From a virus (taxonomy: Duplodnaviria; Heunggongvirae; Uroviricota; Caudoviricetes), in the IMG/VR virus record IMGVR_UViG_3300020061_000005: DNA of 64,000 nucleotides; one strand, given 5' to 3'. Shown piece by piece: positions 6,600-49,888 of the stretch. Position 1 is the first letter of the stretch. Every line of letters starts with the position of its first letter. Below the pieces are notes generated by a model. The model did not search any database. It saw only the letters and a program-made list of their open reading frames with translations, and had not been told where the DNA came from. The translations under genes and the position numbers were made by a program.

Positions 6600-6600
6600 T

Positions 6601-24400: not shown

Positions 24401-27400
24401 CGCCGCACGCGAAGCGATTGGGGCATCGTGAATTCATCGGCGGGGATGAGCTGAAGGATGGTCCGCGGGAGTTGGAGAACACTGCTGCCGTGATGGATAT
24501 GTTCCTTGCCAGTAAGGGCATCACCGTCAAGGTAGATCCGAAGGAGGAGCAGTCTTACGTGGCCACCGAAGCGCTGCGCAAGCGCATCCGCACGGAGGGT
24601 ATGGAGGAGGAGTTCAGCGATTATGTCTCCGAGCTGTTCGCCTCGCTGTCGCCGGCCGAGCGGCTGTTCCAGGGATTCACCTACTCGGGTAATCGCCGCT
24701 ACAAGCCGCACACCCTGGCCAATGTGATGGCGATGCTGAAGAAGGAGCTGCGCGGCGGTGAAGGCTTCAACTACGGTGTGGGATCGCTGCGCTCGAAGTT
24801 CACGCCGCAATTCAGTAGCCTCAAACAGATCAGCGAGAATCAGGATCGCCTGCTGACCGAAGAAGAATTCAAAGCCGTCAAGGAGCAGATCGATACTGAG
24901 TTTTGGGAAGTCGCTGGCAAGCTCGCGCCGTACAGCGGGCGCGGCAAGGAATTCGGCTGGGGCGACACCGTGATCCACATCATGGAGGACGCCGCGAAGA
25001 TGGGGATCGGTCGTGCGCTCAACGAGTACAGCATCGAAGATGTCTCCGATGACGTTCAGAACGACATGCGCGAGTTCATGGGCAAGCTGCGCACGCTACC
25101 CACGGAGTACTTCGAAGCGAAGATCATGCGCGAGGTGGATCTGGCCGAGTTCGCGCACGCCGTGGCGCCCAAGGGAACCTCACAGAAGGCGCTCGATGCG
25201 CTGGCAGCGCGTGGTGTCAAGGTCACGTTCTACAAAAAGGGTGATGATGCGGATCGGCGCCGAGCCATCCAGCAAGCAGCCGAATCATCTTCCAATGTGC
25301 TGTTCAAGAAAGGTGAGGCGCCGCCAGCCGGTGCGCGCACGCTCACTAGTCGAGATATTCGCGATGAAGTGAACCGCATCCTCAAGGAGTTCAAGACCCG
25401 GCCGCGGCTGCTGGTGGTGGACAACGGCAACCAATTCCCGCCGGATCTGCTGGCGCAGATGAAGGGCGGTCGCTCCGATCCCAACGAGGTGCACGCGGTC
25501 CAGTGGAACGGCGGCATCTACATCAACGCCTCTAAGTACACCAACCTGGAGGATGTGTTCGACACCGTGATGCATGAGACGGTGGTTCACTTCGGGCTGC
25601 GCTCGGTGCTGGATATCGACACGCACACCGCGATCCTCGATGGCATTGCCGCGAGCCAGCCGATGGCGGTTCGTCGCATGGGCCAGTTGGAGTACGGTAG
25701 CAAGTTCAATTGGGAAAACCTGCAGCAGCGCCGCATCGCAGCCGAAGAGGTGCTGGCCTACTACGCACCGCTGTACCTGAAAAATAAACCGGTGCCTGGC
25801 GCGCTCAAGCAGTGGCTGAAGCAGTTCATCGACGCGATCAAGGCGTTCATCGCGCGCGTTCGCGGCACGAAGCCCGACACGATGGTGTTGCCTGATGACT
25901 TCGATAAGAAGGCGATGAACAACATCATCGACTCGCTGCACGACTACCTGAAGGGCGGCAAGCAGCCCGACTACGTGGAGACCGCAGAGCAGGCGATGGC
26001 ACAGAAGCCAGCGCCCACCTTCTACTCCGCGCTCACTCGCTCCGCGATGGAAGCCAAGCGCACCATCGGCACCGCGGCGGAGTGGCTGAACACGCTGCGC
26101 AACATGCCTGGGGTCAAGAAGGAAGAGATGGAGTGGTCCGGCCTGGAGGAGTGGATCAACGGCCTGGATCATCGCGCCACGCAAGCGGAGGTGGTCGACT
26201 ACCTGCAGAAGAACGAGATCGAGGTGCAGGATGTCGTGAAAGGCGCCGAGTTCGAAGGACAGGACACGCCAGCGCAGGCGTTGAAGCGCCAGAACGATGA
26301 TTTGGTGGTGAAGATCAGCGCGCTGGGATTTGCCCCGAGCATGTATGACGGCACCTCGGACATGTTTCTCTACCGCAACGATGTCAATGAAACCTACCGC
26401 CACGTCGGCACCAACGTTGGTCGGTGGAAGGATTTTGCCACCGGTGCATGGGCACCTGATGCGGTAGCTAAACTCGCCGATGAGTTGCGTGCCGTGCGCC
26501 AGGAGATGATCAACGTGTCCTGGAAGCGCGACCGCAACGCGGCCACGCAGTACGACCAGTACACCACGCCAGGCGGTGAGAACTACCGCGAGCTGCTGAT
26601 GACGCTGCCAGCGCAGCCGTCGCCTGATGCTGGACCGCGCGGCTGGGGAGATACCGGTGGCGGCACCTACGATACGGTCAACTATCACTCCTCGCATTGG
26701 GATGAGCAGAACATTCTGGCGCACGTCCGCTTCGATGAGCGCACCGACGCCGATGGCAAGCACGTGCTGTTCATCCAGGAGATCCAGAGTGATTGGCACC
26801 AGGCTGGGCGCAAGCGCGGCTACAACGAACCGGACACCATGCAGAAATACATGGAGGCCAAGAAGAGGAAAGGCCAAGCCCGTGAGGAAGCTGCTGCCGC
26901 ACTCAGGCGCAACGACTATCTTGGTTTCGACCAAGTGGTGGATGCAGCGGAGGCGGTGCGTTCGCATCCTGACTGGCTGCAACGCTGGCACGTAGAGGAT
27001 GCCGCAGATGTCGCCGCTATCCAGGAGTACGTCGATGCGCACCAGGAAGTGGAGCGCTTCGGCAAGATGAGTGATGTGCCAGATGCTCCCTTCAAGACCA
27101 CCTGGCCGGAGCTGGCCTTCAAGCGAATGATCCGGTGGGCTGCGCAGCATGACTTTGATCGTATCGCTTGGACGCCAGGGCAGATCCAGGCAGATCGGTA
27201 CGACCTGAGCAAGCAGGTTGGCAGCGTGATCGCCACCAGGGAACGCAGCGATACTGTCTGGCTGGAGATCCGCAAACCAAACGGTGCGTTGATCGACCGC
27301 GGTGAACGGCAGATGTCGCGCCTGGAGGAGATGGTCGGGCAAGACCTGGCGCGCAAGATCGAAGCGCTGCCAGTTGGTGAGGCTCGTAAGTTTACCGGCC

Positions 27401-30252
27401 TGGATCTGCGTGTCGGCGGCGAGGGCATGATCGGCTTCTACGACAAAATCTTGCCGCAGACCGTCAACAAGATGGTGAAGCGCTTCGGTGCGAAAGTCGG
27501 CACGACGAACATGTCGGTTGGCGAATTTCGCGGTGCGGTGAGTGGCCAGATGGTTATGGAGGATCTTGGAATCCCGGAAGAACAACGCCGCGACTATTGG
27601 GGTGGACTTGAGTCTGTCCGGCGCAGCGAGTTGATGAATGAATATCGAAGCAGGGCACAGACTCGCACGCAGCCATTTCACTCCGTCGATGTCACCGACT
27701 CCATGCGCGCCTCTGCGATGGAAGGCCAGCCGATGTTCCAGCAGCGTCACAACGAGGAAGCGGTGGAGCGCACCCGGCCGGTGGGCGAGCAGATCGCCGG
27801 CTACAAGGCAGCGGCACAGCGCGCCATTGATGCCTGGAACCACAAGGTTGGCTGGCTGTGGGGACCGCTGGGCAAGCTGCCCGAGAAGGACAACTATCTG
27901 CGGCTGCGTTACCGAACACTCGGTGACCTAACGGAGATTCGCGTGATCTCGCGCGATATCTTCGACACACTGATGAAGTCCACACCGGAGGACAGCCAGG
28001 CGGCTTATGAGTACCTGACCAACCGCGAGGCGAAGGCAGACACCATCCAGGATCAGAAGATCCGGGCCACCGCAGAGCGCGTGAAGGCGATGTTCGATGT
28101 ACAGGGCCAGCGCCTGGTCGACGCCGGACTGATCCCGCAGGAGTCCTTCGATACTTACGCCGGCCAATATCTGCCGCGGCTGTACCTGAAGCACATCCTG
28201 GGCGACCAGCTGCACGCAGCGATGGGCTCGGGCAAGAAGATGTCGAACCTCGGGCAGACCAAGAAGCGCGACAACACCATTCCCGAAGAGGTCCGCAAGG
28301 TGATTCTCGGGCAGATCCAAGACCCGGCGTTCCTCGCCTCCTTCGGCGTGTCACGCACCATGCGGGATCTGGCGATGATGGATTTCCTCTCCGAAGTGTC
28401 GAAGAACGAGGCATGGACGCCCCCTGAGATGCTGGTCGAGTGGAATGGCCGCAGGGTCTCGCCGTTCTGGATGCACAGCGAGGCGGTACGGCTGCGCAAG
28501 ATGGCCGACTTCATGAAGGGTCACGAGCTGGCTGGTAAGGCGCGTGCCGTGGCGGATCGCATGGACACGCTGGCGAACGCGGCCATTGCGAGGCTTGAGC
28601 GTGCGGAGCTGGATGGCTTCAAGCAGATCCCAGATACACCCTCCTACGGCGCGCTGCGCGGACTGTGGGTGCGCAATGAGATCTACGAAGACCTGGTGGG
28701 TGCGGCGAACTTCATCGATCCGAACTCCGCGGAAGCCTGGATGCGCAAATGGTCCGGCAAGATCACGCGCGCCTGGAAGACCAGCAAGGTGGCGCTCAAC
28801 CCGCCTTCGCACTTTCGCAATATGATGGGCAACTCGATCATGATGCAGTTGGGTGGCGTGCCTTTCCGCACGCAGCCGCTGCGCATGGTGCAAGCGATCA
28901 ACTCGCTGCGTCACAAGGATCGCTTCTACCAGGTTGCCAAGAAGTACGGCATGTTCGAAGCCACCTTCGCGAACGTGGAGCTGGCGCGCATCGCGGATGA
29001 GTGGTTGTCGCTGCAGGACACCAAGGGCTCGCATTTTGGCAAACTGAATGCGATGGCCGGACGTGTGACGAATGCGATCGGCGATCTCTACCAGTTCGAG
29101 GAGGCGCTGTTCAAGCTGATGAAGCTGCGCCACAACATTGAGCAAGGCATGGAGGAAGGGGACGCGATGATCGACGCCCACAAGTGGCTGTTCGATTATT
29201 CCCTGGTGCCGCGCTGGGTTCGCTGGATGCGCAATGCGCCGTTGGGCGTGCCATTCCTCACCTACACCTACAAGGCGGTCCCGCGGATGCTCGAAGCCGC
29301 GATCCTCACCCCGCATCGGTACTTGCCGTACATCGCTGCGGTTTATGCCTTGAAGGAGCTGCTGGAGTATGCCTTCGATGTCGATGACGATGATCTGAAG
29401 AAACTCAAGCAGGCATACCCGAGTTACATGGAGAACAAGGGCGGCCTGATGCTGCTGCCCACGCGCGACGCCAACGGCAACCTGCAGCTCTTCGACATGG
29501 GCTATATCGTTCCCTGGGGCATGGCCGCAGATGTCGCCCGCCAAGGCGAGCACATGGAAGGTGGGATGATCCTTGACTCGCTTGGCATTATGAGTGGACC
29601 GATCGCCGACAACATCGCCGCCTGGAAGACCGGCATCGATCCCTTCACCCGCAAGCCGATCGTGAACCCGAGTGACAGCACGAAGGATCAGATGAAGCAA
29701 CGGCTGTGGTACGCATGGTCGCTCGCCGCACCGCCATTCCTCACTCCCTCTGGTGCTGGCGGCAAGCTCTACGACTACGCCACTGGCGCGGTCGACAAGC
29801 GCACTGGCGAGCAGAAGCTGACCGGCGGCCAGGTGGCGGCACGCTTCTTCGGCCTCACGATCTATCCGGTGAATCCACAGAAAAGCCGTGACACCAACAT
29901 CTACTTCATGCAGAAAGAGATCGATGAGATGCAGTTCCGGGAGCGGCAGCTCACGCGCGACAAGAACCTGGATGCAGCCGGCAAGGCCGAGATCCACAAA
30001 GCGTTTCGCGAGATGGTGAAGCAGAAGCGCACTGAGCTACAGCAGTACAAAAAGGACTCGGAGGTTCACCCGAACCTGCGAAATCAGGAGATAGAGGACA
30101 AGGTTGGAGCCTTGATCGATGGGAAACGGAAGCCCGAAGCGGTAAAAGCGCTGCGTGATGCCGGCTACCCAGCGCTCGCCGGACTACTTGAGGAAATGCC
30201 AGCTCGACACCGGCCGGTGGTTGCGCAGGCACTTCAACAAATGATGGCGTAG
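21448..30252 (+). CDS. Giant multi-domain protein (2934 aa); polyvalent or ejection protein-like
   Basis: Single 8.8-kb ORF with high GC3 throughout. It embeds an inorganic pyrophosphatase-like signature, DGDPVDV...FDEHKAVIGV...YLKHYPAGW. It also carries an HW(D/E)EQNILAH...FIQEIQSDWHQ block. Confidence 0.7.
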   Translation: MANFWDNDPVEAEPWEADPVVDLNPAKKSVEAPIEAPSYLDALKERTADLGDSLMHLPGEVKNLVGPTAREMGAGINRAGYDLLAKSKDYQARRLRDLSIPELREGGNTPADVASEEAFNAEMKSGAAGRVARRANLEQQEAIRPEAGPLESAAAQGLSSAAISAPAILAAGPVMGSALLGAGTGGQRYTQLLDKGVPQAAAAKSALMMGSLEGLTEFLPGQALVKNVPGFWKHLGEFMVAELPGENINSVAQLIDDYRLQLRDDVTKDDLLKAIEDTTLQTIIAGGAQTGAAHLLQQSVDKANQAKPAAGKTPQFTMPEPVVPEPAPLSLPAPGATWTPPDADFVVDAAGNAAPPGEQQKALPHLPEAPTGQFEAGQEGVRQLTTPEVSAREQEEERRQSLGLGNVERVPGSEPVSRGTSPQETTDLSALQAAKDGTATPEQLAGLKGFVNGSGQILPAGRRALKSAQTEQVNAAATLAGPKARITVKPREGRWVVAMDGEEQVVVDSEALARDIAKEARQHLSGPVEVLGQQVEHPTDPTEGQKDAGNYKKPTINFAGMEIAIENLTGSTRQGKDASGKPWSRVMRAPYGYVKRTEGADGDPVDVYLGKNPQSDSVYVIDQLSPNGKAFDEHKAVIGVNNQQEAEALYLKHYPAGWKGMGAVTPMPVAKFKEWARSGNTKAPVTWKDPALLPKRSTKTPQAQHDSILEFISKTKLHSAEKNGLDLDALVAEGLDPKELRAAKGHGINRPFTKGGASLDAMAEMLNDAGYPVQNEKGDYDKNKLLDLITKELRTGSRVTAQAKNFDMELEDLSKKYDQPAKDLDIPDDLTGMTDEELSALSRRIDEMSAKLDEAEAKVEATRERKSIQDEPMFQRDKSAKDRVDEEKERRAEKNLLIQHNLTAANLLHSVKMGGIPIPSLAITKKDQGLTNFGEITLLGPVQMADPRGYARTRVFGADVYSPRYPSVSYSVSSKAVDRLSALIAPHAKRLGHREFIGGDELKDGPRELENTAAVMDMFLASKGITVKVDPKEEQSYVATEALRKRIRTEGMEEEFSDYVSELFASLSPAERLFQGFTYSGNRRYKPHTLANVMAMLKKELRGGEGFNYGVGSLRSKFTPQFSSLKQISENQDRLLTEEEFKAVKEQIDTEFWEVAGKLAPYSGRGKEFGWGDTVIHIMEDAAKMGIGRALNEYSIEDVSDDVQNDMREFMGKLRTLPTEYFEAKIMREVDLAEFAHAVAPKGTSQKALDALAARGVKVTFYKKGDDADRRRAIQQAAESSSNVLFKKGEAPPAGARTLTSRDIRDEVNRILKEFKTRPRLLVVDNGNQFPPDLLAQMKGGRSDPNEVHAVQWNGGIYINASKYTNLEDVFDTVMHETVVHFGLRSVLDIDTHTAILDGIAASQPMAVRRMGQLEYGSKFNWENLQQRRIAAEEVLAYYAPLYLKNKPVPGALKQWLKQFIDAIKAFIARVRGTKPDTMVLPDDFDKKAMNNIIDSLHDYLKGGKQPDYVETAEQAMAQKPAPTFYSALTRSAMEAKRTIGTAAEWLNTLRNMPGVKKEEMEWSGLEEWINGLDHRATQAEVVDYLQKNEIEVQDVVKGAEFEGQDTPAQALKRQNDDLVVKISALGFAPSMYDGTSDMFLYRNDVNETYRHVGTNVGRWKDFATGAWAPDAVAKLADELRAVRQEMINVSWKRDRNAATQYDQYTTPGGENYRELLMTLPAQPSPDAGPRGWGDTGGGTYDTVNYHSSHWDEQNILAHVRFDERTDADGKHVLFIQEIQSDWHQAGRKRGYNEPDTMQKYMEAKKRKGQAREEAAAALRRNDYLGFDQVVDAAEAVRSHPDWLQRWHVEDAADVAAIQEYVDAHQEVERFGKMSDVPDAPFKTTWPELAFKRMIRWAAQHDFDRIAWTPGQIQADRYDLSKQVGSVIATRERSDTVWLEIRKPNGALIDRGERQMSRLEEMVGQDLARKIEALPVGEARKFTGLDLRVGGEGMIGFYDKILPQTVNKMVKRFGAKVGTTNMSVGEFRGAVSGQMVMEDLGIPEEQRRDYWGGLESVRRSELMNEYRSRAQTRTQPFHSVDVTDSMRASAMEGQPMFQQRHNEEAVERTRPVGEQIAGYKAAAQRAIDAWNHKVGWLWGPLGKLPEKDNYLRLRYRTLGDLTEIRVISRDIFDTLMKSTPEDSQAAYEYLTNREAKADTIQDQKIRATAERVKAMFDVQGQRLVDAGLIPQESFDTYAGQYLPRLYLKHILGDQLHAAMGSGKKMSNLGQTKKRDNTIPEEVRKVILGQIQDPAFLASFGVSRTMRDLAMMDFLSEVSKNEAWTPPEMLVEWNGRRVSPFWMHSEAVRLRKMADFMKGHELAGKARAVADRMDTLANAAIARLERAELDGFKQIPDTPSYGALRGLWVRNEIYEDLVGAANFIDPNSAEAWMRKWSGKITRAWKTSKVALNPPSHFRNMMGNSIMMQLGGVPFRTQPLRMVQAINSLRHKDRFYQVAKKYGMFEATFANVELARIADEWLSLQDTKGSHFGKLNAMAGRVTNAIGDLYQFEEALFKLMKLRHNIEQGMEEGDAMIDAHKWLFDYSLVPRWVRWMRNAPLGVPFLTYTYKAVPRMLEAAILTPHRYLPYIAAVYALKELLEYAFDVDDDDLKKLKQAYPSYMENKGGLMLLPTRDANGNLQLFDMGYIVPWGMAADVARQGEHMEGGMILDSLGIMSGPIADNIAAWKTGIDPFTRKPIVNPSDSTKDQMKQRLWYAWSLAAPPFLTPSGAGGKLYDYATGAVDKRTGEQKLTGGQVAARFFGLTIYPVNPQKSRDTNIYFMQKEIDEMQFRERQLTRDKNLDAAGKAEIHKAFREMVKQKRTELQQYKKDSEVHPNLRNQEIEDKVGALIDGKRKPEAVKALRDAGYPALAGLLEEMPARHRPVVAQALQQMMA

Positions 30253-37653: not shown

Positions 37654-39036
37654 TTACTCTTCCTCGTCGTACTCCACCTCGGTCTCCTCGCCAGCCACGA
37701 TGTTGCGCATCACGGCGTCGAGGGTGATCTTCTGCTTCGGCTTCTTGCCATTCAGCAGCTCGATCTGCGGCAGGATGGTGTTGGCCGCATCCAGCAGCGC
37801 ATCCCCGGACAGCATCGAGACCATCGTGCCAGGCTCCTGCAGCGCGAGCTGCGCGATCTTGGCGCGCTTCACCACCTCGGCCACGACAGCCGGGATGTTG
37901 CCGGCCAGCAACTCGCCCACGGGCGCGAGATCTGCCGCAGGGTCGATCGCGCCCTTGCCGTACGCCAGGATCAACCTGGTGATCGCCTCGCCATCAGGCG
38001 GTGGCACCTCGATCACTGCATCCAGGCGGCCTGGGCGCAGCATGGCGCGGTTGATCTTGTCCATGTGGTTGGTGGTCAGCACCACGATGATGTTGGCGGT
38101 CTTGCTGTCGATGCCATCGATCGTGTTCAGGATATCGTCCATCTTCACGGAGCGGTCCCCGGTCACGACCCGATCGATGTCCTCGCAGAAGATCACGCAG
38201 GCGGGTGACTGGTACTGCTTGGCGAAGCTGATCGCCTCGGCCAGCTCATCCGCGCGCGGGATGTAGAGGTAGGTGATCCCTGCGCGCACCGCGAGCTTGG
38301 AGGCCACTGCTGCGGTCATCGTCTTGCCGGTGCCGTAGATGCCACCGAGCAACACGCCGCGCTTGAGCGCGATGCCGTTGGCCAGCAGATCCTTTGTGCG
38401 GGTGATCGGCGTGAACAGGTTCACGTTTACCATGCGCTCGATCGACTTCGGCAGGATCAGCATCTTCTCATCGATGTTCTCGGTCTCCAGGAATTTCGGC
38501 TCCGGCATGAGTAGCTTGCCACCCGCATCATCGAAGAAGCGGATGCGCAGCGCCTTGCCGCGATAGATGCTGTTGGTGGCGATTTGCTCGCGCAGATCCG
38601 CAAAGATCGCCTTGATGGTCGGCTCGTCCTTGCGCAGCACGGAGGCCGCGACGGCGAACACGTATCGACCGTTCTTCATCGAGAACGAGTTCTGGATGAT
38701 GCCTGTGATGTTGGGTAGCTTGAACTTGCCCCATGGCACCTGGCACACCTGGTTGAACCCGATCTCGACGTTGATCATCTGCGGGTAGAAATCAGCGGAA
38801 GGGATAAAGCCGAAACGGCGTGTGAGTACAGCTTCGAGCTGCACTGCGCCGTCCAGCGGGAATACTTCGAAGGCTTCGGTCAGGTTGATCTCCTGCTGCT
38901 CGTAGACCCGGCGAGCCTGGATCAACTTCTCTGCTTCATCGAGTGTCATGCCATCGGGGAGAATCATCTTCTCTCCCATGAACACGATGTCGGCAGCAAC
39001 GTGTCGGGTGATGGCGTCTTTCAGTTCCGTAGGCAT
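37654..39036 (-). CDS. AAA+ ATPase
   Basis: Walker A GGIYGTGKT, Walker B VIFCEDID, and SRH MLRPGRLD. GGGAGA RBS. Confidence 0.75.
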   Translation of the reverse strand: MPTELKDAITRHVAADIVFMGEKMILPDGMTLDEAEKLIQARRVYEQQEINLTEAFEVFPLDGAVQLEAVLTRRFGFIPSADFYPQMINVEIGFNQVCQVPWGKFKLPNITGIIQNSFSMKNGRYVFAVAASVLRKDEPTIKAIFADLREQIATNSIYRGKALRIRFFDDAGGKLLMPEPKFLETENIDEKMLILPKSIERMVNVNLFTPITRTKDLLANGIALKRGVLLGGIYGTGKTMTAAVASKLAVRAGITYLYIPRADELAEAISFAKQYQSPACVIFCEDIDRVVTGDRSVKMDDILNTIDGIDSKTANIIVVLTTNHMDKINRAMLRPGRLDAVIEVPPPDGEAITRLILAYGKGAIDPAADLAPVGELLAGNIPAVVAEVVKRAKIAQLALQEPGTMVSMLSGDALLDAANTILPQIELLNGKKPKQKITLDAVMRNIVAGEETEVEYDEEE

Positions 39037-39092: not shown

Positions 39093-40216
39093 CTCAGATC
39101 CGCAACCGAATCTCGCGTTTGACCGTCGCTGGTGTAGCTGGCGTACGGTTGCAGTGCGTCTGGCATCGGTAACTGATCGATGTGCGAGACCGCGAGGCGG
39201 CAGAGCACACGGTTGCCGATCGCATCGTTCGCGGTGTTGATGATCATTTGCTTCACGTCCAAATACCCGAAACGCAGCGTGCCCTGGAATTCGTGCGGTG
39301 CGTTGGTGTCATCGGCGAATTTCATCTCAGGTTCTTCGCCTGGCAGCGGCCCTGCACCGTGGCGTGTGAGATAGGTGCGTGTGCAATAGATCGCCTCCAA
39401 TTCATCGATTCCCCATTCGTTCGCGAGCGTCGCCACGTTCTTGGATCCGGTGTTGGAGCGGGTGAGGTGCGGGAAGTCCGCCGTGTTGTTCTGATCCAGC
39501 AGCAGCCCCTGCGCGCCTTCGAATACAATTCTCTGTGGTCGGTTATGCTCATTCGGCGGCGGTACCAAGAGCACTCGCTGGGTGAACATCATCACGTCAT
39601 ACAGGAACCCATCGATCGCATCCTTCGAGTTCCATTGCTTGGAGTACTGGTTGAAAACGTCTGGCTCTATCCCAGCGATTCCCAACTCGAAAGAGCTGTG
39701 TGCTTGGATTGCGGCAATCAGGTGGCGCACCCCGGTAGTGCTACGGTAAAGATCACGCACCGTTAGCGGGATCTTGCGGTGCCGCTCGATGGTCTGGTTG
39801 AAGCCAACCCCGCAGCTCCCGTGTCGGGCTTCGCCGCGGTGATTCTCCTGGAGCTGGTTCACCATCATGTCCCACGGCGTCGTCACCATGCACTCGCCGT
39901 CGACAAACACACGTGGCCAGTTGTTGGTGAAGCAGCCCTTGCCGTGGCCTTCCAGCTCCACGCTCTCCTGGTTGAACAGGATGGGATTCACCACAAAGAA
40001 TCGGCTCAGGTACGTGGGCACGTTCAGGAACGTCCCCGAGCCGAAGTGATGGAACACATGGCGGCGGCCATCGGGAGTCACGACGGTGTGCCCTGCCTGC
40101 GCGCCTCCGTTGAAGCGCACGACAAGATCGACTGTGTGCCTTGAGCACAAGTAGTCGACCATCTTTCCCTTACCCTCGTCGCCGTAGTTGGCGCCGATGA
40201 CCGCCCATGCCTTCAT
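39089..40216 (-). CDS. Adenylosuccinate synthetase family protein (PurA paralogue; candidate PurZ-like)
   Basis: GANYGDEGKGKMVDYL, GGAQAGHTV and FEGAQGLLLD...TRHGAGPLPGE match PurA. 375 aa, shorter than canonical PurA. ATGA-coupled to the VWA gene. Confidence 0.75.
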   Translation of the reverse strand: MKAWAVIGANYGDEGKGKMVDYLCSRHTVDLVVRFNGGAQAGHTVVTPDGRRHVFHHFGSGTFLNVPTYLSRFFVVNPILFNQESVELEGHGKGCFTNNWPRVFVDGECMVTTPWDMMVNQLQENHRGEARHGSCGVGFNQTIERHRKIPLTVRDLYRSTTGVRHLIAAIQAHSSFELGIAGIEPDVFNQYSKQWNSKDAIDGFLYDVMMFTQRVLLVPPPNEHNRPQRIVFEGAQGLLLDQNNTADFPHLTRSNTGSKNVATLANEWGIDELEAIYCTRTYLTRHGAGPLPGEEPEMKFADDTNAPHEFQGTLRFGYLDVKQMIINTANDAIGNRVLCRLAVSHIDQLPMPDALQPYASYTSDGQTRDSVADLR

Positions 40217-41133
40217 ACCCTGACTGCGCCTCCCGTATCGGTGCCCTTGGCCAGCGCGCTCGTTGCCGTGCGCACCACCAAAGCAGTGGAACCATCCCAG
40301 CTATTCACCACCGCATCCACGTCCGCACCCTCGTTGATCTGGATGGTGGATACGATCACCTCGCCCAGCTTCGTATGGTCCGACAGCAGTAGCGCTCGCT
40401 CGCCCAGCACCTTGCGCCAGGCGGGCAGGAAGCGGTCGCTGTAGGAACCTTCCTGAACGACCAGGTGGAACACGTGGTACATGCGCTGCGCGAGCTGCAG
40501 CAGTTCGGCTGCGGAGTAATCGCGCTCCACATCATCGCCGATGAAGCGCTTCAGGTGGTCCTTGGTGAGACCGGCCGGCACGCTTTCATCCCCGAGCGTG
40601 AACAGGTAGCCCTTCTTGTTGCGCTTCTCCAGGCAATCGATGGAGGTGTGCAGGCCAGCGAAATACCAGGGCAGATCGTAGGATTCGGTCTGGTTGCCAC
40701 CACCGTCGCCCTCGATGTAGATATCGGTGAGCTGATCCACGATGCGGTTATCCGCCTCGAACTGCGATACCTGCAGCGGCACCTGGTCGCTGCGCGCATC
40801 GCCGATCGCCATGAACATCAGATGCGGATCGGTGACCGGCTTGCGTGACAGGATCTCGTTGAACAGCGTGCCCAGGCCGTGCTTCGCGATCTTCTCGGCC
40901 AGCATTCCCATGCTGCCTGTCACATCCACGCCCACGATGATCGCGGTGGAGTTCGGGTTGTCGATCGAATCGCGGGACTCGCGGATCTTCACGCCGTGGG
41001 GATTGAGGTGCTTGGCAGCACCGGTGAGCACAGCCGATGCCGTGCGGGTCTTGTATATGTCATCGACGCTCTTGCTCGCGATGTTCGCCGAGTAACTTGC
41101 GTACGCATTGGAGTCAAACCTTCCACTACCCAC
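40213..41133 (-). CDS. von Willebrand factor A domain protein
   Basis: MIDAS motif in IIVGVDVTGSMG. GTG start six nt after GGAGA. Confidence 0.65.
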   Translation of the reverse strand: MGSGRFDSNAYASYSANIASKSVDDIYKTRTASAVLTGAAKHLNPHGVKIRESRDSIDNPNSTAIIVGVDVTGSMGMLAEKIAKHGLGTLFNEILSRKPVTDPHLMFMAIGDARSDQVPLQVSQFEADNRIVDQLTDIYIEGDGGGNQTESYDLPWYFAGLHTSIDCLEKRNKKGYLFTLGDESVPAGLTKDHLKRFIGDDVERDYSAAELLQLAQRMYHVFHLVVQEGSYSDRFLPAWRKVLGERALLLSDHTKLGEVIVSTIQINEGADVDAVVNSWDGSTALVVRTATSALAKGTDTGGAVRV

Positions 41134-41144
41134 TAGAATTCTCC

Positions 41145-41624
41145 TTACCTTGAAAATTTGCGACTCTCAGCGGGAGTCGTGACCGCTTTGGCTCGGTTCC
41201 AGCCATAAACCTTGATGCGACGATATGCCGTCTGGTACTTAACGACGCCATGCTTTCGCACGGCGCGGGTCAGTGTCAATCTCTCGCCGCCGATTCGGAC
41301 CATCACGTTGGAGCGAGAGTTATTGTTCTGCTCTTCCTTTGAGGTGAAGCGACAATTGCCGGGTGAGTAGTTGCCATTATTGTTTTCGCGATCGAGCGTG
41401 TGGCCGCTCGGGATAGTCCCCTGCTGATCGCACCATCTCAGGAACGCATGAGGGCGGCTTCGCCAGGCGCAACATACACTGATGCCGCGAGCACCATAGC
41501 GGTTGTAATCCTTAGAGGAAGTGACATGGCAGCGCTGCACCATCGCGTGCCAGGTGCCGTAGAACCTATGGTGAGACAGGCCATGCGTCCGATTACGCTC
41601 CGCTAGATCAAGTCTTTGCCACAT
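41145..41624 (-). CDS. HNH/AP2-like DNA-binding or homing endonuclease-like protein
   Basis: YGTWHAMVQRCH...YGARGISVCCAW pattern, as in phage HNH/AP2-type proteins. Confidence 0.4.
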   Translation of the reverse strand: MWQRLDLAERNRTHGLSHHRFYGTWHAMVQRCHVTSSKDYNRYGARGISVCCAWRSRPHAFLRWCDQQGTIPSGHTLDRENNNGNYSPGNCRFTSKEEQNNNSRSNVMVRIGGERLTLTRAVRKHGVVKYQTAYRRIKVYGWNRAKAVTTPAESRKFSR

Positions 41625-42639
41625 AGATATCTTCTGCTGTGAGCTTCAGCTCCACGAACTTGCGCGGGCCGTAGCTCTCTTTCAAAACTCTCGACCAATC
41701 GGCGTACTCCTCGAAGGCGGGAAGATACGCGGTGCTGCGAAGCCAGTGAACCAGGGGCTTCGGATACTTCATGGAAAGGAGGCGCGAACCGATGGTGTCC
41801 CCTAGCAGCTCGCGCCCCGTGGCCTTGATCAACTCGGAGTTCATCCTGTCGATCGCCTTCTTGTCCGGCAGCAGCGGCGTCCCGTATTGAACGGTGCGCG
41901 GTGGCAGTGCAATCAGCCTTTCCCCTTCGCGCCTGGCGTACCACCAGCCACCAAAAAGCGCCGCGTCGTGATCGGCCGGGTGAATAAACACGTTACGCGG
42001 CGAAATATCGCAATGCACCAAACCGGCCAGCTTCAGGTAACAGTTCAGGTTGTAGAGGCAGCTCAAGATCCAGGCGACATGGCGCTCCTCGATCTTGCCG
42101 CCAAGGTGCGTCAGGACGTCGCTCAAGCGCAGATAGGCTGGGTTCTTCTCGATGACCAGGTAGTAGCCGGTCTTCACCTGGATGAGCCGCTGGAGCCTTG
42201 GGAGGTGCCTGCTGTGCTCTGCCTTCAGGTGGCCATCGGCGAAGGTAAAGTGCCGCTCCATGTGGTCCTGGGCGACGCGCACCAGGTCGGCATATTCATC
42301 ACGGATGTAGTACGCCAGCACTGATTTACCAATGTAGGCGCGTCCCAGCTCGAACTCCTCGGATTTGAGATACCCGAAGGCGAAGTTATGGCCGCGCACG
42401 TCGGCGAACATGAGCTGCCCCATCCCGCGCCAGGTGCCGCCGTCGATCGCATCCATGGCGCGATCGTAGAGCGCGTTGATGTGCGCCATGACGGCCGGGT
42501 TCACGGAGTTGGTGTCCGGGTGCCACTTGGAGCGCAGGCGCTGCCATTGGGCTTTGGCGGCCGGCCGCACCCCGGTGAACAGCCGCTCGGGCATGTCCAC
42601 CGGGATCGCCAGGATCTGGGCTTCGGTCAACTCCGTCAT
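41608..42639 (-). CDS. J-domain / protein-kinase-like fusion protein
   Basis: N-terminal RLRSKWHPDTN...INALYD is a J domain with HPD. Downstream HCDISPRNVFIH looks like a kinase catalytic loop. Confidence 0.5.
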   Translation of the reverse strand: MTELTEAQILAIPVDMPERLFTGVRPAAKAQWQRLRSKWHPDTNSVNPAVMAHINALYDRAMDAIDGGTWRGMGQLMFADVRGHNFAFGYLKSEEFELGRAYIGKSVLAYYIRDEYADLVRVAQDHMERHFTFADGHLKAEHSRHLPRLQRLIQVKTGYYLVIEKNPAYLRLSDVLTHLGGKIEERHVAWILSCLYNLNCYLKLAGLVHCDISPRNVFIHPADHDAALFGGWWYARREGERLIALPPRTVQYGTPLLPDKKAIDRMNSELIKATGRELLGDTIGSRLLSMKYPKPLVHWLRSTAYLPAFEEYADWSRVLKESYGPRKFVELKLTAEDIYVAKT

Positions 42640-42871: not shown

Positions 42872-43024
42872 TTACCTCGATGTCGAAGGTGGCGAAGACT
42901 GCTCGATGGTCTGCGGTGCCCGCGCCTTCTTGTGTTTCGTGGCACTGAGCGCTATCACAACCAGGATGCCAACGATCACGACTGTGACCAGCAGCTCGAT
43001 GAGGGTGAAGCCGCGGCGCTTCAC
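42872..43024 (-). CDS. Prepilin-like micro-protein (50 aa)
   Basis: GTG start overlaps the SPFH stop (GTGA). Encodes MKRRG|FTLIELLVTVVIVGILVVIA, a type IV pilin class III signal. Sits inside the longer track ORF 42872..43135. Confidence 0.35.
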   Translation of the reverse strand: MKRRGFTLIELLVTVVIVGILVVIALSATKHKKARAPQTIEQSSPPSTSR

Positions 43025-43815
43025 TTGGGCGGCTCGACACTGATGAAGGGAATCGCGCCATTGCCACCGCTCCAGGACGGGACCGTGCCGTTCCATTTCT
43101 GGATGGCGGCGCGCTGCACCTGCAGGCGTTCCCACTCGATCAGTCCCTGGTTCTCGCGAATGGCGCGCGCTCGATCAGCCATCGCTTCGGCGTCTGCCTT
43201 AGCGCGGGCTTTGTTCTGCTCACCCTCCTGCACCACCTCAGAGGTCTTGTTCGCAGCAGCGAGCGCATCCTGGGCAGCAACCACCTTGCGCTCGACCGAA
43301 TTCTCATAGCCATCATCGAAGTCGATGTTGGTCACCGCAAGGCCGGTCACCTGGACGTGCTTCGGTGCCAGCACCTTGCGCACCTCATCGTACATCTCGG
43401 TGATCGCGCGGCCACGGTTCGATATCAGCTCGGCCGCCTCGTACTTGCCGGCGATGCTCTTGATGCCATCGAACACGTCCTGGCCCACCAGCTTGTCCGC
43501 CCATTCGGTGCCCACCTCGGCCAGCACAGCCGGCGCAGCCGCTGGCTCCAGGCGATAGTTCACGGTCACATCGAGGTCCGCTTTCTGGATGTCCTTGGTG
43601 TAGACGGGCGTCTTGAATTCCCACTTCAGCACGCGCACGTCCATCTCGGTGATGTTGTCGGTGATCGGGTTGTACCAGTGCAAGCCTTCCCCGAGTGATT
43701 CTGGGTGCACCTTGCCATAAGTGGTCTGCACACCGCGGTGGCCGGTGTCGACGATCTCGAAGCCGCAGCCGGTCAGGGCGAAGGCAAGCAGGCAAAGCAC
43801 GATCAGTCGCGTCAT
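43021..43815 (-). CDS. SPFH/band-7 (HflC/prohibitin-like) lipoprotein
   Basis: Lipobox LTGCG. SPFH core, then an Ala/Glu/Gln-rich coiled-coil. Confidence 0.7.
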   Translation of the reverse strand: MTRLIVLCLLAFALTGCGFEIVDTGHRGVQTTYGKVHPESLGEGLHWYNPITDNITEMDVRVLKWEFKTPVYTKDIQKADLDVTVNYRLEPAAAPAVLAEVGTEWADKLVGQDVFDGIKSIAGKYEAAELISNRGRAITEMYDEVRKVLAPKHVQVTGLAVTNIDFDDGYENSVERKVVAAQDALAAANKTSEVVQEGEQNKARAKADAEAMADRARAIRENQGLIEWERLQVQRAAIQKWNGTVPSWSGGNGAIPFISVEPPK

Positions 43816-44026: not shown

Positions 44027-44433
44027 TTGTTTAGCTCCTGTGCTTCGTAGTCGGCGTTAGTGTGAGAGTCATCACACCCATAAGGCTCACGAAGCCATTT
44101 GATGTGGGCCTTGATCTCGCGAACCACGTGGCTCACGGGGCGATCTGACTGGTAATAGAAGATCTCCTCGGTGCCAATACCGCCGAAGAACGAACGTGCA
44201 TCAGTGATGTCGTAATTACCCTTTTTATCGAAATTCAGCGTGAAGCCGCGGCGCCTGAACCACGGGTCCAGCCCGCAATGGCCAGCCGCGCAGGCGATGG
44301 TTCCGCACTCGGTGAGGTTGCCCCAAATACCCATGTCCCAATGATTGCGCTTGACGTGCGCCGGTAGTGCCTGCAGGACGCGCGCTGCGTTCTCCCAGCG
44401 CTCGATGATTAGTGGACCGGTGGCCGTTTTCAC
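44023..44433 (-). CDS. Hypothetical protein
   Basis: GTG start. Contains CGTIACAAGHC. Confidence 0.45.
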   Translation of the reverse strand: MKTATGPLIIERWENAARVLQALPAHVKRNHWDMGIWGNLTECGTIACAAGHCGLDPWFRRRGFTLNFDKKGNYDITDARSFFGGIGTEEIFYYQSDRPVSHVVREIKAHIKWLREPYGCDDSHTNADYEAQELNK

Positions 44434-45377
44434 TTCGTCGCTCCCTTCGGTGGTGGTTCTTCCGCCAGCTCGTGGCGCAGCTTCTTGTACTCATCCTCGA
44501 TGTCTGGCGGCACGGGTTCGCCACAGAAGTCGAAGTCCTCCAGGATCACGTTCCACAGCGGCTCCAGCGCCTTGCGGTTGGCCGCGGTGCGCAGCAACTT
44601 GACGGCGTTCTCGCTGGTGTACTGCGGTTTGCGCTTCTCGCCAGGCGGGTCGATCGGCACGTCGGTAGGAAGTTCATCAGCCTTGAGGGTTGCCGGAGGA
44701 ACATCGCCCACCAGGGTTGCGGTGGCGTCGCCTGCTTTGGCGCTGCCGCCGACCATCCGCCGTGCCGCTTCGGTCGCTGCGCTGGTGCGCGAGGCGCCAG
44801 GCGTGACGTTCACCGGCTGTGCGTCGGCCTGGGCCGCGAGGATGCGCTGCGCTTCGTCCTCGTCGTAGATCCCAGCGAAGCCGAAGGCCACGCGCGCGCA
44901 CTGGATCAGGGTCTTGTGGCGCAGCATCCGGTTCGGGTGCGTCTGCCACGGTCCCGCGTTCGCACGGAAGCACTCCTCCATGTACTCCGTAATCGAGATA
45001 GGGCGGCTGCGGTCCTTGCGCCAGATCGAGCAAGTCATCTCGACCACCTTGCCGGCCTCGTCCTTGAACGCCGCGAACTCGATGCCGTCCATCTGCGGAT
45101 GTTCATTGATGATCCGCACCCAGCCGTCTACCGACACGATCGGAACGATGCCCTTATACCTGTCCGGGTAGGCGTAGATCTCTTTCGTGAAAGGATTTAG
45201 CGAATACTGATCCGCCACGATCAGCAGACTCATCATCTGCTCGTTGCTGATCTCCTTGTCCGACTGGAAGGCGGTGGCCTTCAGCGTCGTGAGGAGCTTG
45301 TCGGGATCGACGCCGTACTTACCGGCGAACTTGGAGACCAGACCCTGCGAGGGCGGCTTGGAGACAACGGCGTTCAT
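44430..45377 (-). CDS. RecT/Bet-family single-strand annealing protein
   Basis: LLIVADQYSLNPFTKEIYAY...GIVPIVSVDGW is the RecT family core. Confidence 0.7.
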   Translation of the reverse strand: MNAVVSKPPSQGLVSKFAGKYGVDPDKLLTTLKATAFQSDKEISNEQMMSLLIVADQYSLNPFTKEIYAYPDRYKGIVPIVSVDGWVRIINEHPQMDGIEFAAFKDEAGKVVEMTCSIWRKDRSRPISITEYMEECFRANAGPWQTHPNRMLRHKTLIQCARVAFGFAGIYDEDEAQRILAAQADAQPVNVTPGASRTSAATEAARRMVGGSAKAGDATATLVGDVPPATLKADELPTDVPIDPPGEKRKPQYTSENAVKLLRTAANRKALEPLWNVILEDFDFCGEPVPPDIEDEYKKLRHELAEEPPPKGATK

Positions 45378-46321
45378 TTCTTACCTTTAACGGTGGAGGG
45401 TTTCTTGGTGCGCAGCACGCGATAGGCCGCGCGCTTCTTGTAGTAAGGGGAGAGGTTGATGTCCGGATGGCCTTTCTGCAGGGCGTCCGTATCGAAGTAG
45501 CTGGAGCCGGCCTGTGATTTGTAGGTGGCGAGCAACTTGCCGCTGGAATCGACCAGCTCCGGGGAATCCCCGAAGGCTTCGCCGATCATCGCGTAGAGCT
45601 GTTCCTGGCGCTCCTCCAGGTTCTTCAGTAGCAGCTTATTCGCTTCGAACTTGGTGAATGCGGATAGCACGTCTACGCTCGCGATAGCCGGTTTCATGCC
45701 GTGCACGTCGTAGGGATAGAGGATCTTCAGATCCTGCTTCGTGGTGGCCGGCGGTGGATCGCTCTCGGTGACGTGACGCCAGAAGCGCTTCTCGCCTTCG
45801 CGCAGGATCTCAATCAACTCCTCGTTGCGCTCGACGCGGTAGATGCGGATACGGGTGTTGCCGATGATGACCGGCACCCACGCCGCGCCGAGGTCAGCGC
45901 AGTCCAGGTCGTGCTGGATCTGGTAGATGTACTGCAGCGGGATCTCGTCCGTATCGTCCTTTCCCCATTGCTGGCCGATGAAGCCTGCGGTCTTCGCCTC
46001 CACCAGCAAGCCATCGGAGCCGATGCCATCGACCGTTGCGCGGCGCCACGGATTCTTCGGATCAACGAAGCGGGTCTGGCGCGAATGGATTGCGATCTTC
46101 TTCTTCTGCTCCAGCTTCAAGAGCACCAGCGGCTCAACCAGCTGGCCCACCTGCGCGGGGAGGTTCAGATCCTCCTCCTCGTCCATATCCTCCGCGAGTC
46201 CCTTCTTCTCCCGATAGAGCTGCAGCGGGGACTTCCATTGTGATAATCCGATCGCGGCTGCGCACTCTGAGCCTCCCAGAAAATCACGCCGCTCGATCAA
46301 TTCGTCTTTCGTCAATGCCAT
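45374..46321 (-). CDS. YqaJ-like (lambda Exo-type) recombination exonuclease
   Basis: Start taken at MALTKDELIERRD...GGSECAAAIG. PD-(D/E)xK-like core. ATGA-coupled to RecT. Confidence 0.65.
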   Translation of the reverse strand: MALTKDELIERRDFLGGSECAAAIGLSQWKSPLQLYREKKGLAEDMDEEEDLNLPAQVGQLVEPLVLLKLEQKKKIAIHSRQTRFVDPKNPWRRATVDGIGSDGLLVEAKTAGFIGQQWGKDDTDEIPLQYIYQIQHDLDCADLGAAWVPVIIGNTRIRIYRVERNEELIEILREGEKRFWRHVTESDPPPATTKQDLKILYPYDVHGMKPAIASVDVLSAFTKFEANKLLLKNLEERQEQLYAMIGEAFGDSPELVDSSGKLLATYKSQAGSSYFDTDALQKGHPDINLSPYYKKRAAYRVLRTKKPSTVKGKK

Positions 46322-46352
46322 GTGGCCGCACCTTGTTTCGTGTAGGTGGATT

Positions 46353-46377
46353 GTGTTACCACTATTACCTTGAGAAT
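46353..46377 (-). promoter_or_regulatory. Phage promoter-motif instance (GGTAATAGTGGTAACAC, minus orientation) upstream of exo-recT operon
   Basis: Motif copy GTGTTACCACTATTACC on the + strand. Confidence 0.4.
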
Positions 46378-46398
46378 AACAATTTGCAAGGGGATCGA

Positions 46399-46596
46399 AT
46401 GGCCGGCACATTCAGCTACCACGTCAACCGCAGTGACATGACGAACTTCCAGTGGGATACCTGCAGGATCTGCAGCGAGTCGATCATCACCGCGCACGTA
46501 AAGATGCAGCACCGCAGCTTCGATCCGAAGCCGACCGGCGGTACGGAGATGAACCCGGTCTATTCCACGCACGTCTGTCCGAGGAAGGATGATTGA
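46399..46596 (+). CDS. Small Zn-ribbon-like protein
   Basis: GGGGA RBS. Contains CRICS...H...C. Confidence 0.4.
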   Translation: MAGTFSYHVNRSDMTNFQWDTCRICSESIITAHVKMQHRSFDPKPTGGTEMNPVYSTHVCPRKDD

Positions 46597-48880: not shown

Positions 48881-48980
48881 ATGGTGACCGGCCCGCGCGG
48901 ACCTGTGGCGTATGCTGTTTGGACTCACCGTACGCAGGTTCAGTCCGATCGCGCGGGCCGGCCATCTCCAGCGGAGAAAA

Positions 48981-49250
48981 ATGATGAGTGAATTTACCGC
49001 GGACCAGATTTTCCTCTCGGTCAGGCTGCACGAAATCCTCTCGAAGCGTGAGCTGGAAGTGGCCGGACTGATCGCGGATGGCCAGCCACCGGAGGCGATC
49101 TCGAAGAAGTTGGCGCTGAGTGTCAAAACCGTATCGACGTACCGCGCCCGCGTGATGGACAAGCTAAAGCCGCACGGCGTTGAGAGCAACGCGCGCCTGG
49201 CGGTGCTGCTGTTCCAGGCTGGGCTCACTCCTGCGGTCAAGCTGCAATGA
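48981..49250 (+). CDS. LuxR/GerE-type HTH transcriptional regulator
   Basis: LSKRELEVAGLIADGQPPEAISKKLALSVKTVSTYRARVMDKL. GGAGAAAA RBS. Confidence 0.6.
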   Translation: MMSEFTADQIFLSVRLHEILSKRELEVAGLIADGQPPEAISKKLALSVKTVSTYRARVMDKLKPHGVESNARLAVLLFQAGLTPAVKLQ

Positions 49251-49888
49251 GCCATTACGACACCTTGGGCGTTGCGCGCGATGCCACGGCGGCGGAGATC
49301 AAGCGCGCCTATCGCAAGCTCGCGAGCAAGCACCACACCGACCGCGACCATGGCGATCACGACACAATGGCGCAGATCAACCGCGCCTATGAAACGTTGT
49401 CGAATCCGGAGAAGCGCAAGCGCTACGATGCGAGCGGCGAGGACGGTCCCGCGCCGAAGTCGATCGAGGAGAGCGCCACCGAGGCCGTGATGCAAGTCAT
49501 GACGCAGATGGTGGACTCAGATTTCGATGGCAATATTGTGGCGGAGTTGAACAGTCACTTCCGCAAGATGCTCTCTAAGATGACCGCGCAGAACACCGCC
49601 TGCGAGGCAAAGATCGCGAAGCTGCTGAAGCGCCGAGCGAAGATCAAAGCCAAGGAGGGCGTGGTGAATTTCATGCACCAGATCATCGATGAGGCGATCG
49701 GTAAGCTGAAGCAGCGCATCGAAGGTAACAAGCAGCAGGTGCCGTTGTGCGAGATGGCGCTGGCGATCGTTGCGGACTTCACTGACGAGTCGTCGGTTGT
49801 CAAAGCTGACGATGATATGTTCGGCGTCATGCTGCAGATCTTGGAATCGCAGCGCGGCGGTAAACGCGGAGGTGCGTATGGATTCTGA
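49247..49888 (+). CDS. J-domain protein with non-canonical HTD tripeptide
   Basis: YDTLGV...EIKRAYRKLASKHHTDRDHG...AYETLSNPEKRKRYD. The canonical HPD is replaced by HTD. Confidence 0.6.
   Translation: MSHYDTLGVARDATAAEIKRAYRKLASKHHTDRDHGDHDTMAQINRAYETLSNPEKRKRYDASGEDGPAPKSIEESATEAVMQVMTQMVDSDFDGNIVAELNSHFRKMLSKMTAQNTACEAKIAKLLKRRAKIKAKEGVVNFMHQIIDEAIGKLKQRIEGNKQQVPLCEMALAIVADFTDESSVVKADDDMFGVMLQILESQRGGKRGGAYGF

Follow-up and report, generated by a model that had tools for sequence, protein, structure and literature searches.

The 64,000-nucleotide stretch of virus DNA analysed here (IMG/VR record IMGVR_UViG_3300020061_000005, Caudoviricetes; hereafter the window) carries a gene whose product joins a J domain to a protein-kinase-like domain, and it raises the question of what such a fusion does. 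In the original prediction this protein, which we call JK for its J-domain / kinase-fold fusion, was a possible chaperone-targeting kinase for host takeover comparable to T7 gp0.7, and a second J-domain protein of the window, here called J2, was a possible DnaK trap (coordinates in Table 1). We favour another reading for JK, to which we give a probability of about 50%: JK would be a J-protein co-chaperone or adaptor that uses its pseudokinase fold to bring host DnaK to a module formed by a vWA-fold protein and a PurA-like enzyme.

The predicted open reading frame (ORF) of JK exists on the minus strand and contains KWHPDTN. A word-indexed search returned 327 homologues of about 345 residues, many with a precomputed PF00226 match, and an exhaustive profile search returned 889 cluster representatives at E<=1e-30 and 1745 at E<=1e-10. 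The names given to these relatives by their sources range from 'hypothetical protein' to 'J domain-containing protein', 'molecular chaperone DnaJ' and 'serine/threonine protein kinase'. The tblastn search of the JK protein against isolated phages gave one weak partial match only. Taken as a single sequence, JK had no match to Pfam DnaJ at E<1. By contrast, PF00226 was matched by 26 of the 39 homologues aligned in our alignment A1 (best E=3e-8), and the family profile matched the solved J domains of DNAJB9 and E. coli DnaJ (E~2e-5, profile positions 26-89). The J-domain assignment thus appears to hold only at family level, and not from the window sequence alone. The HPD motif is far more than a chance tripeptide: among the 230 unique family members used for all JK residue counts in this work, His is kept in 226, Pro in 224 and Asp in 225, and in the AlphaFold2 model H40-P41-D42 sits between the helices at residues 25-39 and 48-66. 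The domain is minimal, with helices II and III and the HPD motif present and helices I and IV not recognisable. The J domain with its HPD was therefore correctly predicted, while calling it canonical was an overstatement.

The AlphaFold2 model of JK, built on alignment A1 (predicted local distance difference test 93.4, predicted template modelling score 0.85), showed a bilobal kinase fold by fold comparison, indicating that the predicted fusion of a J domain with a protein-kinase-like domain is real; the absence of such a fold, named in the original prediction as a refuting outcome, was thus not observed. The pseudokinases STRADalpha, VRK3, STK40, BubR1 and ULK4 were among its first 60 structural neighbours. 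JK shares only 10-15% identity with them and differs in an invariant GGWW in place of DFG, in the fusion to a J domain and in its bacterial and phage distribution. A search of the viral folds in BFVD returned only generic kinases of eukaryotic viruses. In single-sequence comparisons, JK scored 13.1 bits against Pfam PF00069 Pkinase, below the gathering threshold of 31.7, and matched the PHROG 'kinase' (E=1e-4) and Aurora A (E=0.03); kinase models were matched by only 1 of the 39 aligned homologues.

The active site of this fold is degenerate. The HxD-containing segment highlighted in the original prediction, HCDISPRNVFIH, is present at residues 209-220 of JK and aligns with the catalytic loop of PKA. 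At position 211, corresponding to the catalytic Asp of PKA (D166), the family has Ala in 136 members, Asp in 43 and Gly in 38, and at position 216 (PKA N171) it has Thr in 150, Asn in 36 and Ser in 33. S213, which corresponds to K168 of PKA, is Ser in 131, Leu in 34 and Thr in 31. Only 10 of the 230 members have both Asp211 and Asn216, namely the window's own clade (P0002-P0008) and two others. The position of the beta3 (VAIK) lysine is Tyr111 in JK, with Val (88), Leu (49), Glu (32), Ala (19), Ser (15) and Phe (9) as the commonest family residues, and no conserved Lys was found in the neighbouring N-lobe strands of the family. The glycine-rich loop is absent, and the place of DFG is taken by G230-G231-W232-W233 (conserved in 229, 229, 230 and 227 members). 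At the same time W70, G99, K165, H187, W190, H209, H224, GGWW, R276 and W315 are invariant or nearly so. The invariance of K165, H224, GGWW, W70, W190, W315 and R276 argues for a conserved binding surface rather than decay, and the pattern fits a family that has lost the canonical phosphotransfer residues and is yet strongly constrained, as would be expected of a binding or scaffold domain.

The genomic context of JK was analysed in 73 bacterial and 51 viral loci whose ORFs were scored, and 128 loci with JK were counted. The same gene order (JK, a protein of about 305-320 residues and a Pfam Adenylsucc_synt protein) was found in a Massilia chromosome, a 274-kb contig and a 360-kb contig. The vWA gene was present in 117 of the 128 loci and the PurA-like gene in 113, all on the JK strand, and a hidden Markov model search found complete trios in 112 loci, in phages as well as in bacteria. 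The gap between JK and the vWA gene had a median of 4 bp, with the PurA-like gene directly next. JK thus nearly always heads an operon in which a vWA gene and a PurA-like gene follow, and the loci departing from the trio are mostly truncated contigs. Clustering of all neighbouring ORFs revealed as conserved neighbours only the vWA gene, the PurA-like gene and, in bacteria, an NrtR-type regulator, and no PP2C phosphatase. In PADLOC, JK weakly matched the PD-T4-6 kinase model only (E=1.7e-4) and its two partners had no match, indicating that the module is not a catalogued defence system. JK stands alone amid housekeeping genes in a Clostridium clade and in one viral locus; in this divergent clade (loci L064-L067, L071 and L072 of Clostridium spp., and L101) the genes flanking it encode RNase J, DUF4130/radical-SAM and glycogen-debranching proteins.

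The protein encoded next to JK has a vWA Rossmann-like fold with a DxSxS-type metal site resembling a metal-ion-dependent adhesion site (MIDAS). This protein had no match in Pfam (including any vWA model), PADLOC or the PDB sequences, and no NCBIfam model matched either it or JK. Its homologues at 55-60% identity number more than 5000, and the D70-x-T72-x-S74 motif is invariant in the family. Met1-Gly2 is also invariant (in 32/32 and in 22/22 sequences), and the first strand follows a conserved R-E-S-R-D-S motif. If exposed, the N-terminal glycine might be a modification site.

The start of the PurA-like gene overlaps the stop of the vWA gene by 4 bp in the window. Its product matched PurA in the PDB over approximately 325 residues (E=2e-43), and PurZ over residues 2-59 only (3.5e-6). 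The fold of the adenylosuccinate synthetase superfamily and the GTP site are retained, with the GDEGKG P-loop, the catalytic His, FEGAQG and TRHGAGP. However, the aspartate-binding loop of PurA (T300-T301-G-R303) is changed to F-Q-G-x(-L-R), the Thr-Thr that holds the phosphate of inosine monophosphate (IMP) to Ser-Cys, and the C-terminus is about 55 residues shorter. The protein reached 130 bits with the NCBIfam PurA equivalog model (cut-off 402) and 45.6 bits with the PurZ model (cut-off 300), the latter by the N-terminal P-loop only. The PurZ / Z-base (2-aminoadenine) pathway was rejected for this gene, as the scores are far below PurZ level. Scores below both cut-offs, together with the changed aspartate loop, IMP-phosphate site and length, indicate a third protein that is neither PurA nor PurZ. 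Its probable reaction is the joining of a nucleotide to some amine that is not aspartate.

The vWA and PurA-like genes form the core pair of the module. In viral contigs the vWA family had at least 591 matching stretches, compared to 51 for JK. Among the best 80 of these vWA loci, the PurA-like gene was present in 77 and JK lay upstream of the vWA gene in 42, while 13 had a Met/Gly-rich protein of about 240 residues in the JK slot and 25 had no conserved upstream partner. JK is thus an accessory or regulatory first gene in about half of the phage versions, since many loci carry the pair without it. The Met/Gly-rich protein (237-263 residues) has a conserved N-terminal half and a Met/Gly-rich low-complexity tail; examples are found unannotated in Vibrio phage Va1 (L132, 4222-4935) and as gp016 of Rhizobium phage RHph_Y65 (L134, 3777-4568). 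Among isolated phages the vWA protein was found in 220 records. Vibrio phages Va1 and pv27 carry it with an 'adenylosuccinate synthase', and Rhizobium phages of the RHph_Y65 type carry it with PurA, with phosphoribosyltransferase and NMN-adenylyltransferase/Nudix genes 3-4 kb upstream. It also occurs in Bxz1-type mycobacteriophages, where Cali encodes a protein annotated 'kinase' (gp251), the vWA protein (gp252) and PurA (gp254). Cali gp251 was reached via its vWA neighbour; it carries SAVHPDR and a kinase-like HGAITPDN...LIDW, and a profile comparison confirmed its homology with the JK family (hhalign probability 98.4%, E=1e-14).

JK is about equally common in bacterial chromosomes and in phages (73 genome loci and 51 viral loci). 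In 36 of the 77 bacterial loci included in the regulator count, a gene with NUDIX and NrtR_WHD domains lies immediately upstream of JK, mostly in divergent orientation. Its product (230-270 residues) was the sole further recurrent neighbour, and was found in Massilia, Competibacter, Contendobacter, Rhizobiales, Geobacter, Geomonas, Pyrinomonadaceae and Lachnospiraceae. The NUDIX and NrtR winged-helix domains reached Pfam E values down to 9e-26, and an NCBIfam model of ADP-ribose-responsive repressors was matched with E=3e-40. Intergenic palindromes are lineage-specific: TGTTATT-N4-AATAACA in Competibacter, TTGCAA repeats in Rhizobiales, and a 2x17-bp inverted repeat in Pyrinomonadaceae, where the regulator gene heads the operon. 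From the gene neighbourhood and the predicted ligand, the bacterial module probably belongs to an NrtR-type regulon linked to ADP-ribose and NAD (nicotinamide adenine dinucleotide). Phages carry the module without this repressor. The bacterial occurrence, the operon linkage and the NrtR-type repressor together indicate a conserved cellular module and not a phage weapon. This, with the missing catalytic residues, leaves little of the comparison with T7 gp0.7, a phage-restricted early gene for an active kinase of host proteins, as JK occurs in bacterial genomes of many phyla, often behind such a repressor; this was judged from these features and not from a direct sequence comparison with gp0.7.

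In the reading that we favour, the pseudokinase domain of JK would bind the vWA protein or the vWA/PurA-like complex, and the HPD J domain would dock host DnaK and trigger ATP hydrolysis. Hsp70 would thereby assemble, activate or recycle the vWA/PurA-like complex. In bacteria, NrtR-type, ADP-ribose-responsive repression of the operon would connect it to NAD/ADP-ribose-linked nucleotide metabolism, as the gene neighbourhood suggests. What the analysis shows is how the domains are arranged, which fold they adopt, which residues are lost, that the genes are linked in an operon and which regulator lies beside them; binding between the proteins, recourse to DnaK and the chemistry are inferred. An intact HPD, a degenerate and constrained kinase fold, the coupling to the vWA and PurA-like genes and the dispensability of JK in many versions fit an accessory J-protein adaptor. 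Several points weigh against it. JK lacks a vWA or PurA-like gene within 8 kb in 10 of the 128 loci, mainly of the Clostridium clade, and can therefore work without an adjacent partner. The JK residues were mapped by sequence and profile alignments and not by model coordinates, and some kinases are known to be active although they lack the beta3 Lys (WNK) or the DFG Asp (CASK). The window's JK subclade retains the HxD Asp and the catalytic-loop Asn, and Cali gp251 retains the catalytic-loop Asn and the Asp of 'IDW'. Finally, the NrtR-type match reached 138 bits with an equivalog cut-off of 400, and its ligand is assumed from family behaviour.

Two other explanations of JK compete with an adaptor role. 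JK might be an active atypical kinase that phosphorylates DnaK, a DnaK client or the vWA protein by a non-canonical site, with the J domain used for docking, and it would then serve in host takeover or in signalling. The full bilobal fold suits this explanation, as do H209-x-D211 and N216 in register with D166 and N171 of PKA and kept in P0002-P0008, and a Cali gp251 that exceeds the Pfam Pkinase threshold (33.8 vs 31.7 bits) with 'IDW' at the DFG place; vWA and kinase pairs are, moreover, known in TerY-P triads (PMC11090510). We nevertheless consider it unlikely, because the beta3 Lys is missing with no conserved Lys elsewhere in the N-lobe strands, an invariant Gly replaces the DFG Asp, and no PP2C phosphatase is among the conserved neighbours. 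Furthermore, 95% of the family lack the Asp and Asn pair with architecture and operon unchanged, indicating that the conserved function is independent of these residues. Bacterial chromosomes and a metabolic-type repressor do not suit a takeover weapon either, so that the active host-takeover kinase of the original prediction was not borne out. Residual non-canonical activity of the window's own JK, which keeps two of the five key residues, would be a minor prospect.

Alternatively, JK might be a ligand-sensing pseudokinase, whose pocket binds ATP, ADP-ribose or the product of the PurA-like enzyme and thereby gates the access of the J domain to DnaK. JK would then be a regulator or co-chaperone gated by a metabolite instead of a passive adaptor. 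Conserved polar residues surround what was the active site (K165 at the hinge, H209, H224 and S213), and the operon is tied to a nucleotide-forming enzyme and an ADP-ribose-type regulator. STRADalpha binds ATP without catalysis, and pseudokinases of its type are among the structural neighbours of JK. However, the phosphate-holding glycine-rich loop and the beta3 Lys are absent, and nothing separates this explanation from plain protein-protein binding, which makes it rather improbable.

J2 is a different case. It is not linked to the JK module, as no homologue was found in the 128 JK loci. The KHHTD noted in place of HPD is real (K28-H29-H30-T31-D32). Full-length relatives of about 200-220 residues share the J domain and the helical C-terminal region, and in the 15 that were aligned the middle residue of the motif is Pro in 10, Thr in three (the window, P0122 and P0124) and Ser in two, the HSD members being more distant; none of them departs from His30 or Asp32. 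L129 and L130, which come from other samples and share 48% protein identity with J2, have the same Thr codon, ACC. A sequencing variant is ruled out by this shared codon and by HTD also in P0122, and an identical codon in diverged relatives indicates that HTD is inherited and tolerated and not an error. The pairing of J2 with a GerE/LuxR-type gene also occurs in L129 and L130, and J2, like its relatives, lies in a phage early region. The 4-bp overlap of the two genes and their pairing in relatives suggest that regulator and J protein could be co-translated. Near the J2 homologue of L131 there is a 487-residue AAA protein.

A DnaK trap, in which the HTD J domain binds DnaK without stimulating its ATPase so that the host chaperone is sequestered or inhibited, would draw on a Thr that replaces Pro while the rest of the signature is intact (Y-R-K-L-A in helix II, H30, D32 and AYETL in helix III). 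HTD is kept in three diverged proteins and HSD in two, and so is selected or tolerated; in scanning mutagenesis of E. coli DnaJ, Pro34 is reportedly essential. However, HPD is present in 10 of the 15 relatives, including P0123 at 48% identity, so that HTD, HSD and HPD look interchangeable, and the DnaK-contacting His and Asp are invariant. Literature searches on an HTD variant of HPD found no paper mentioning one. The same observations are accounted for by a milder reading, a weaker or tuned co-chaperone whose C-terminal client domain is phage-specific, and the alternation of HPD, HTD and HSD within one family favours this over a trap. J2 is thus most likely a weakened, tuned or specialised DnaK co-chaperone whose helical region would be its own client domain, and a trap is a poor prospect.

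The gene content of the window is phage-like (RecT and YqaJ exonuclease, HNH endonuclease, sigma-like factor and a 2934-residue ORF), and a megablast comparison of the 9 kb surrounding the genes with 50,697 phage records gave no nucleotide-level relative. The single 2934-residue ORF (21448-30252, plus strand) presumably encodes a giant virion or tail protein. The RecT / YqaJ-exonuclease recombination module (44430-46411, minus strand) lies upstream of the JK operon on the same strand, and the pair is also present on the related 77-kb contig L129. Within the operon of the window, an HNH endonuclease gene separates JK from the vWA gene; it overlaps JK by 17 bp and has a GC content at third codon positions of 0.64, compared to about 0.8 in its neighbours. 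Given this lower value and the median gap of 4 bp at other loci, the HNH gene is probably a mobile, homing-endonuclease-like insertion into the operon and lies outside the module. Directly downstream of the PurA-like gene there is an AAA+ ATPase of a group (phrog_10440) whose function is not known, possibly a phage-specific addition to the operon. An SPFH/Band-7 protein (43021-43815, minus strand) is encoded two genes upstream of JK. In a cluster of 13 viral loci, Band_7 genes are again found close to the module (for example L111, 2950-3921), and in L154 the ORF directly upstream of the vWA gene (6160-6987) is SPFH-like by eye only. The AAA+ ATPase, the SPFH protein and J2 were rejected as general members of the module, as none has homologues in the 128 JK loci.

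Table 1. Features of the JK operon, of the J2 region and of NrtR-type regulators. Positions refer to the window unless a locus is named.
Feature	Position	Strand	Basis or detail
JK, J-domain / kinase-fold fusion, 343 residues	41608..42639	-	ORF, ATG start
J domain of JK, residues ~19-66 (helix II, HPD loop, helix III)	42442..42585	-	family profile vs PDB, model helices
HPD motif of JK, H40 P41 D42, codons CAC CCG GAC	42514..42522	-	sequence RLRSKWHPDTN
Protein-kinase-fold domain of JK, residues 70-343, degenerate active site	41611..42432	-	fold model
Catalytic-loop remnant H209-C-D211-I-S-P-R-N216	41992..42015	-	aligned to PKA Y164-R-D166-L-K168-P-E-N171
G230-G231-W232-W233 at DFG place	41941..41952	-	hhalign to PKA (D184), phmmer to Aurora A
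HNH endonuclease gene between JK and vWA gene	41145..41624	-	phrog_3377 E=4e-42
vWA-fold protein, 306 residues, MIDAS-like D70-x-T72-x-S74	40213..41133	-	fold and motif
PurA-like GTP-dependent enzyme, 375 residues	39089..40216	-	Pfam Adenylsucc_synt E=4e-45
AAA+ ATPase, 460 residues, CDC48/PAN-like AAA domain	37654..39036	-	Pfam AAA E=1.6e-16; phrog_10440 E=3.5e-182
GerE/LuxR-type helix-turn-helix gene	48912..49250	+	Pfam GerE E=7e-14; overlaps J2 start by 4 bp
J2, 213 residues, J domain at residues 3-61 and helical C-terminal region	49247..49888	+	Pfam DnaJ E=4e-19
H30-T31-D32 of J2, replacing HPD	49334..49342	+	codons CAC ACC GAC
NrtR-type regulator, example	L028 7143-7826	-	
NrtR-type regulator, example	L045 7141-7935	+	
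NrtR-type regulator, example	L074 6386-7381	+	

J-domain proteins determine the targets of Hsp70. JK resembles the class C (type III) J proteins, such as auxilin/GAK and Rki of phage RB43, in joining an HPD J domain to an unrelated specificity domain, and in such proteins recruitment of Hsp70/DnaK to one particular target is expected. In GAK, too, a single chain combines a kinase with a J domain. Rki is a phage-encoded J protein acting on host DnaK, according to Perrody et al. 2012 as cited in PMC12619734. JK differs in that its J domain is N-terminal and minimal (helices II-III) with a degenerate kinase fold as partner domain, and in that it is prokaryotic or phage-encoded, has about 345 residues and lies in an operon with vWA and PurA-like genes. 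The likeness to GAK and Rki is one of architecture and expected role only, and no sequence relationship is claimed.

The coupling of a vWA protein to an ATP-driven partner has a parallel in the MoxR-type AAA+ ATPases, which assemble, activate or recycle vWA adaptors, as in NorQ-NorD and BchI-BchD. No MoxR gene is conserved with JK, and the ATP-driven partner would here be host Hsp70 recruited via the J domain; the likeness is thus an analogy of mechanism and not membership. The TerY-P triad, a predicted metal-sensing switch, consists of a TerY-type vWA protein, a PP2C phosphatase and a Ser/Thr kinase, and related modules defend against phages (PMC11090510). In both this triad and the JK module, a small mobile cassette links a vWA/MIDAS protein genetically with a kinase-fold protein. 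The JK module differs in that no PP2C is conserved and the third gene is PurA-like, the kinase fold is degenerate with a J domain where the TerY-P kinase has a zinc ribbon or OB fold, and no Pfam vWA model shows detectable sequence similarity to the vWA protein. The PurA-like protein resembles PurA in its GDEGKG P-loop, catalytic His, FEGAQG and TRxGAGP, and is unlike PurA and PurZ in its scores below the equivalog cut-offs, its changed aspartate loop, its Ser-Cys and its shorter C-terminus. In our literature searches, no work turned up on a phage or bacterial fusion of a J domain with a pseudokinase, on a vWA/PurA-like pairing or on a link between NrtR and adenylosuccinate. A survey of jumbo phages mentions only sporadic DnaJ co-chaperones and one MoxR-vWA pair (PMC7824862). 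JK may thus be a co-chaperone of the J-domain kind, while the three-gene module around it may itself be new.

Taken further, JK, the MIDAS vWA protein and the PurA-like enzyme might form an undescribed Hsp70-dependent nucleotide-modifying system, in which a purine nucleotide is joined to an amine other than aspartate in a GTP-driven and ADP-ribose-switched reaction and which phages carry for NAD/ADP-ribose pools; we regard this as a tentative and rather doubtful extension. One candidate for this amine is the N-terminal glycine that is invariant in the vWA protein, and other amines of proteins or metabolites are further ones. Under NrtR-type control, accumulating ADP-ribose would turn the system on in bacteria, and phages would restore or rewire NAD/ADP-ribose-linked nucleotide pools during infection, for example against NAD-depleting defences.

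If the adaptor reading of JK is true, a J domain on a dead kinase fold in a vWA/PurA-like operon is a new way to aim DnaK at one enzyme system. The module ranges over jumbo phages, mid-sized phages, Bxz1-type mycobacteriophages and many bacterial phyla, and is present in the cultured systems of Mycobacterium phage Cali/Bxz1 on M. smegmatis, Vibrio phage Va1 and Massilia sp. Leaf139. A PurA-like enzyme with a lost aspartate pocket implies a nucleotide product not yet known, and the NrtR-type regulator links the module to the biology of ADP-ribose and NAD, which is central in phage-defence research.

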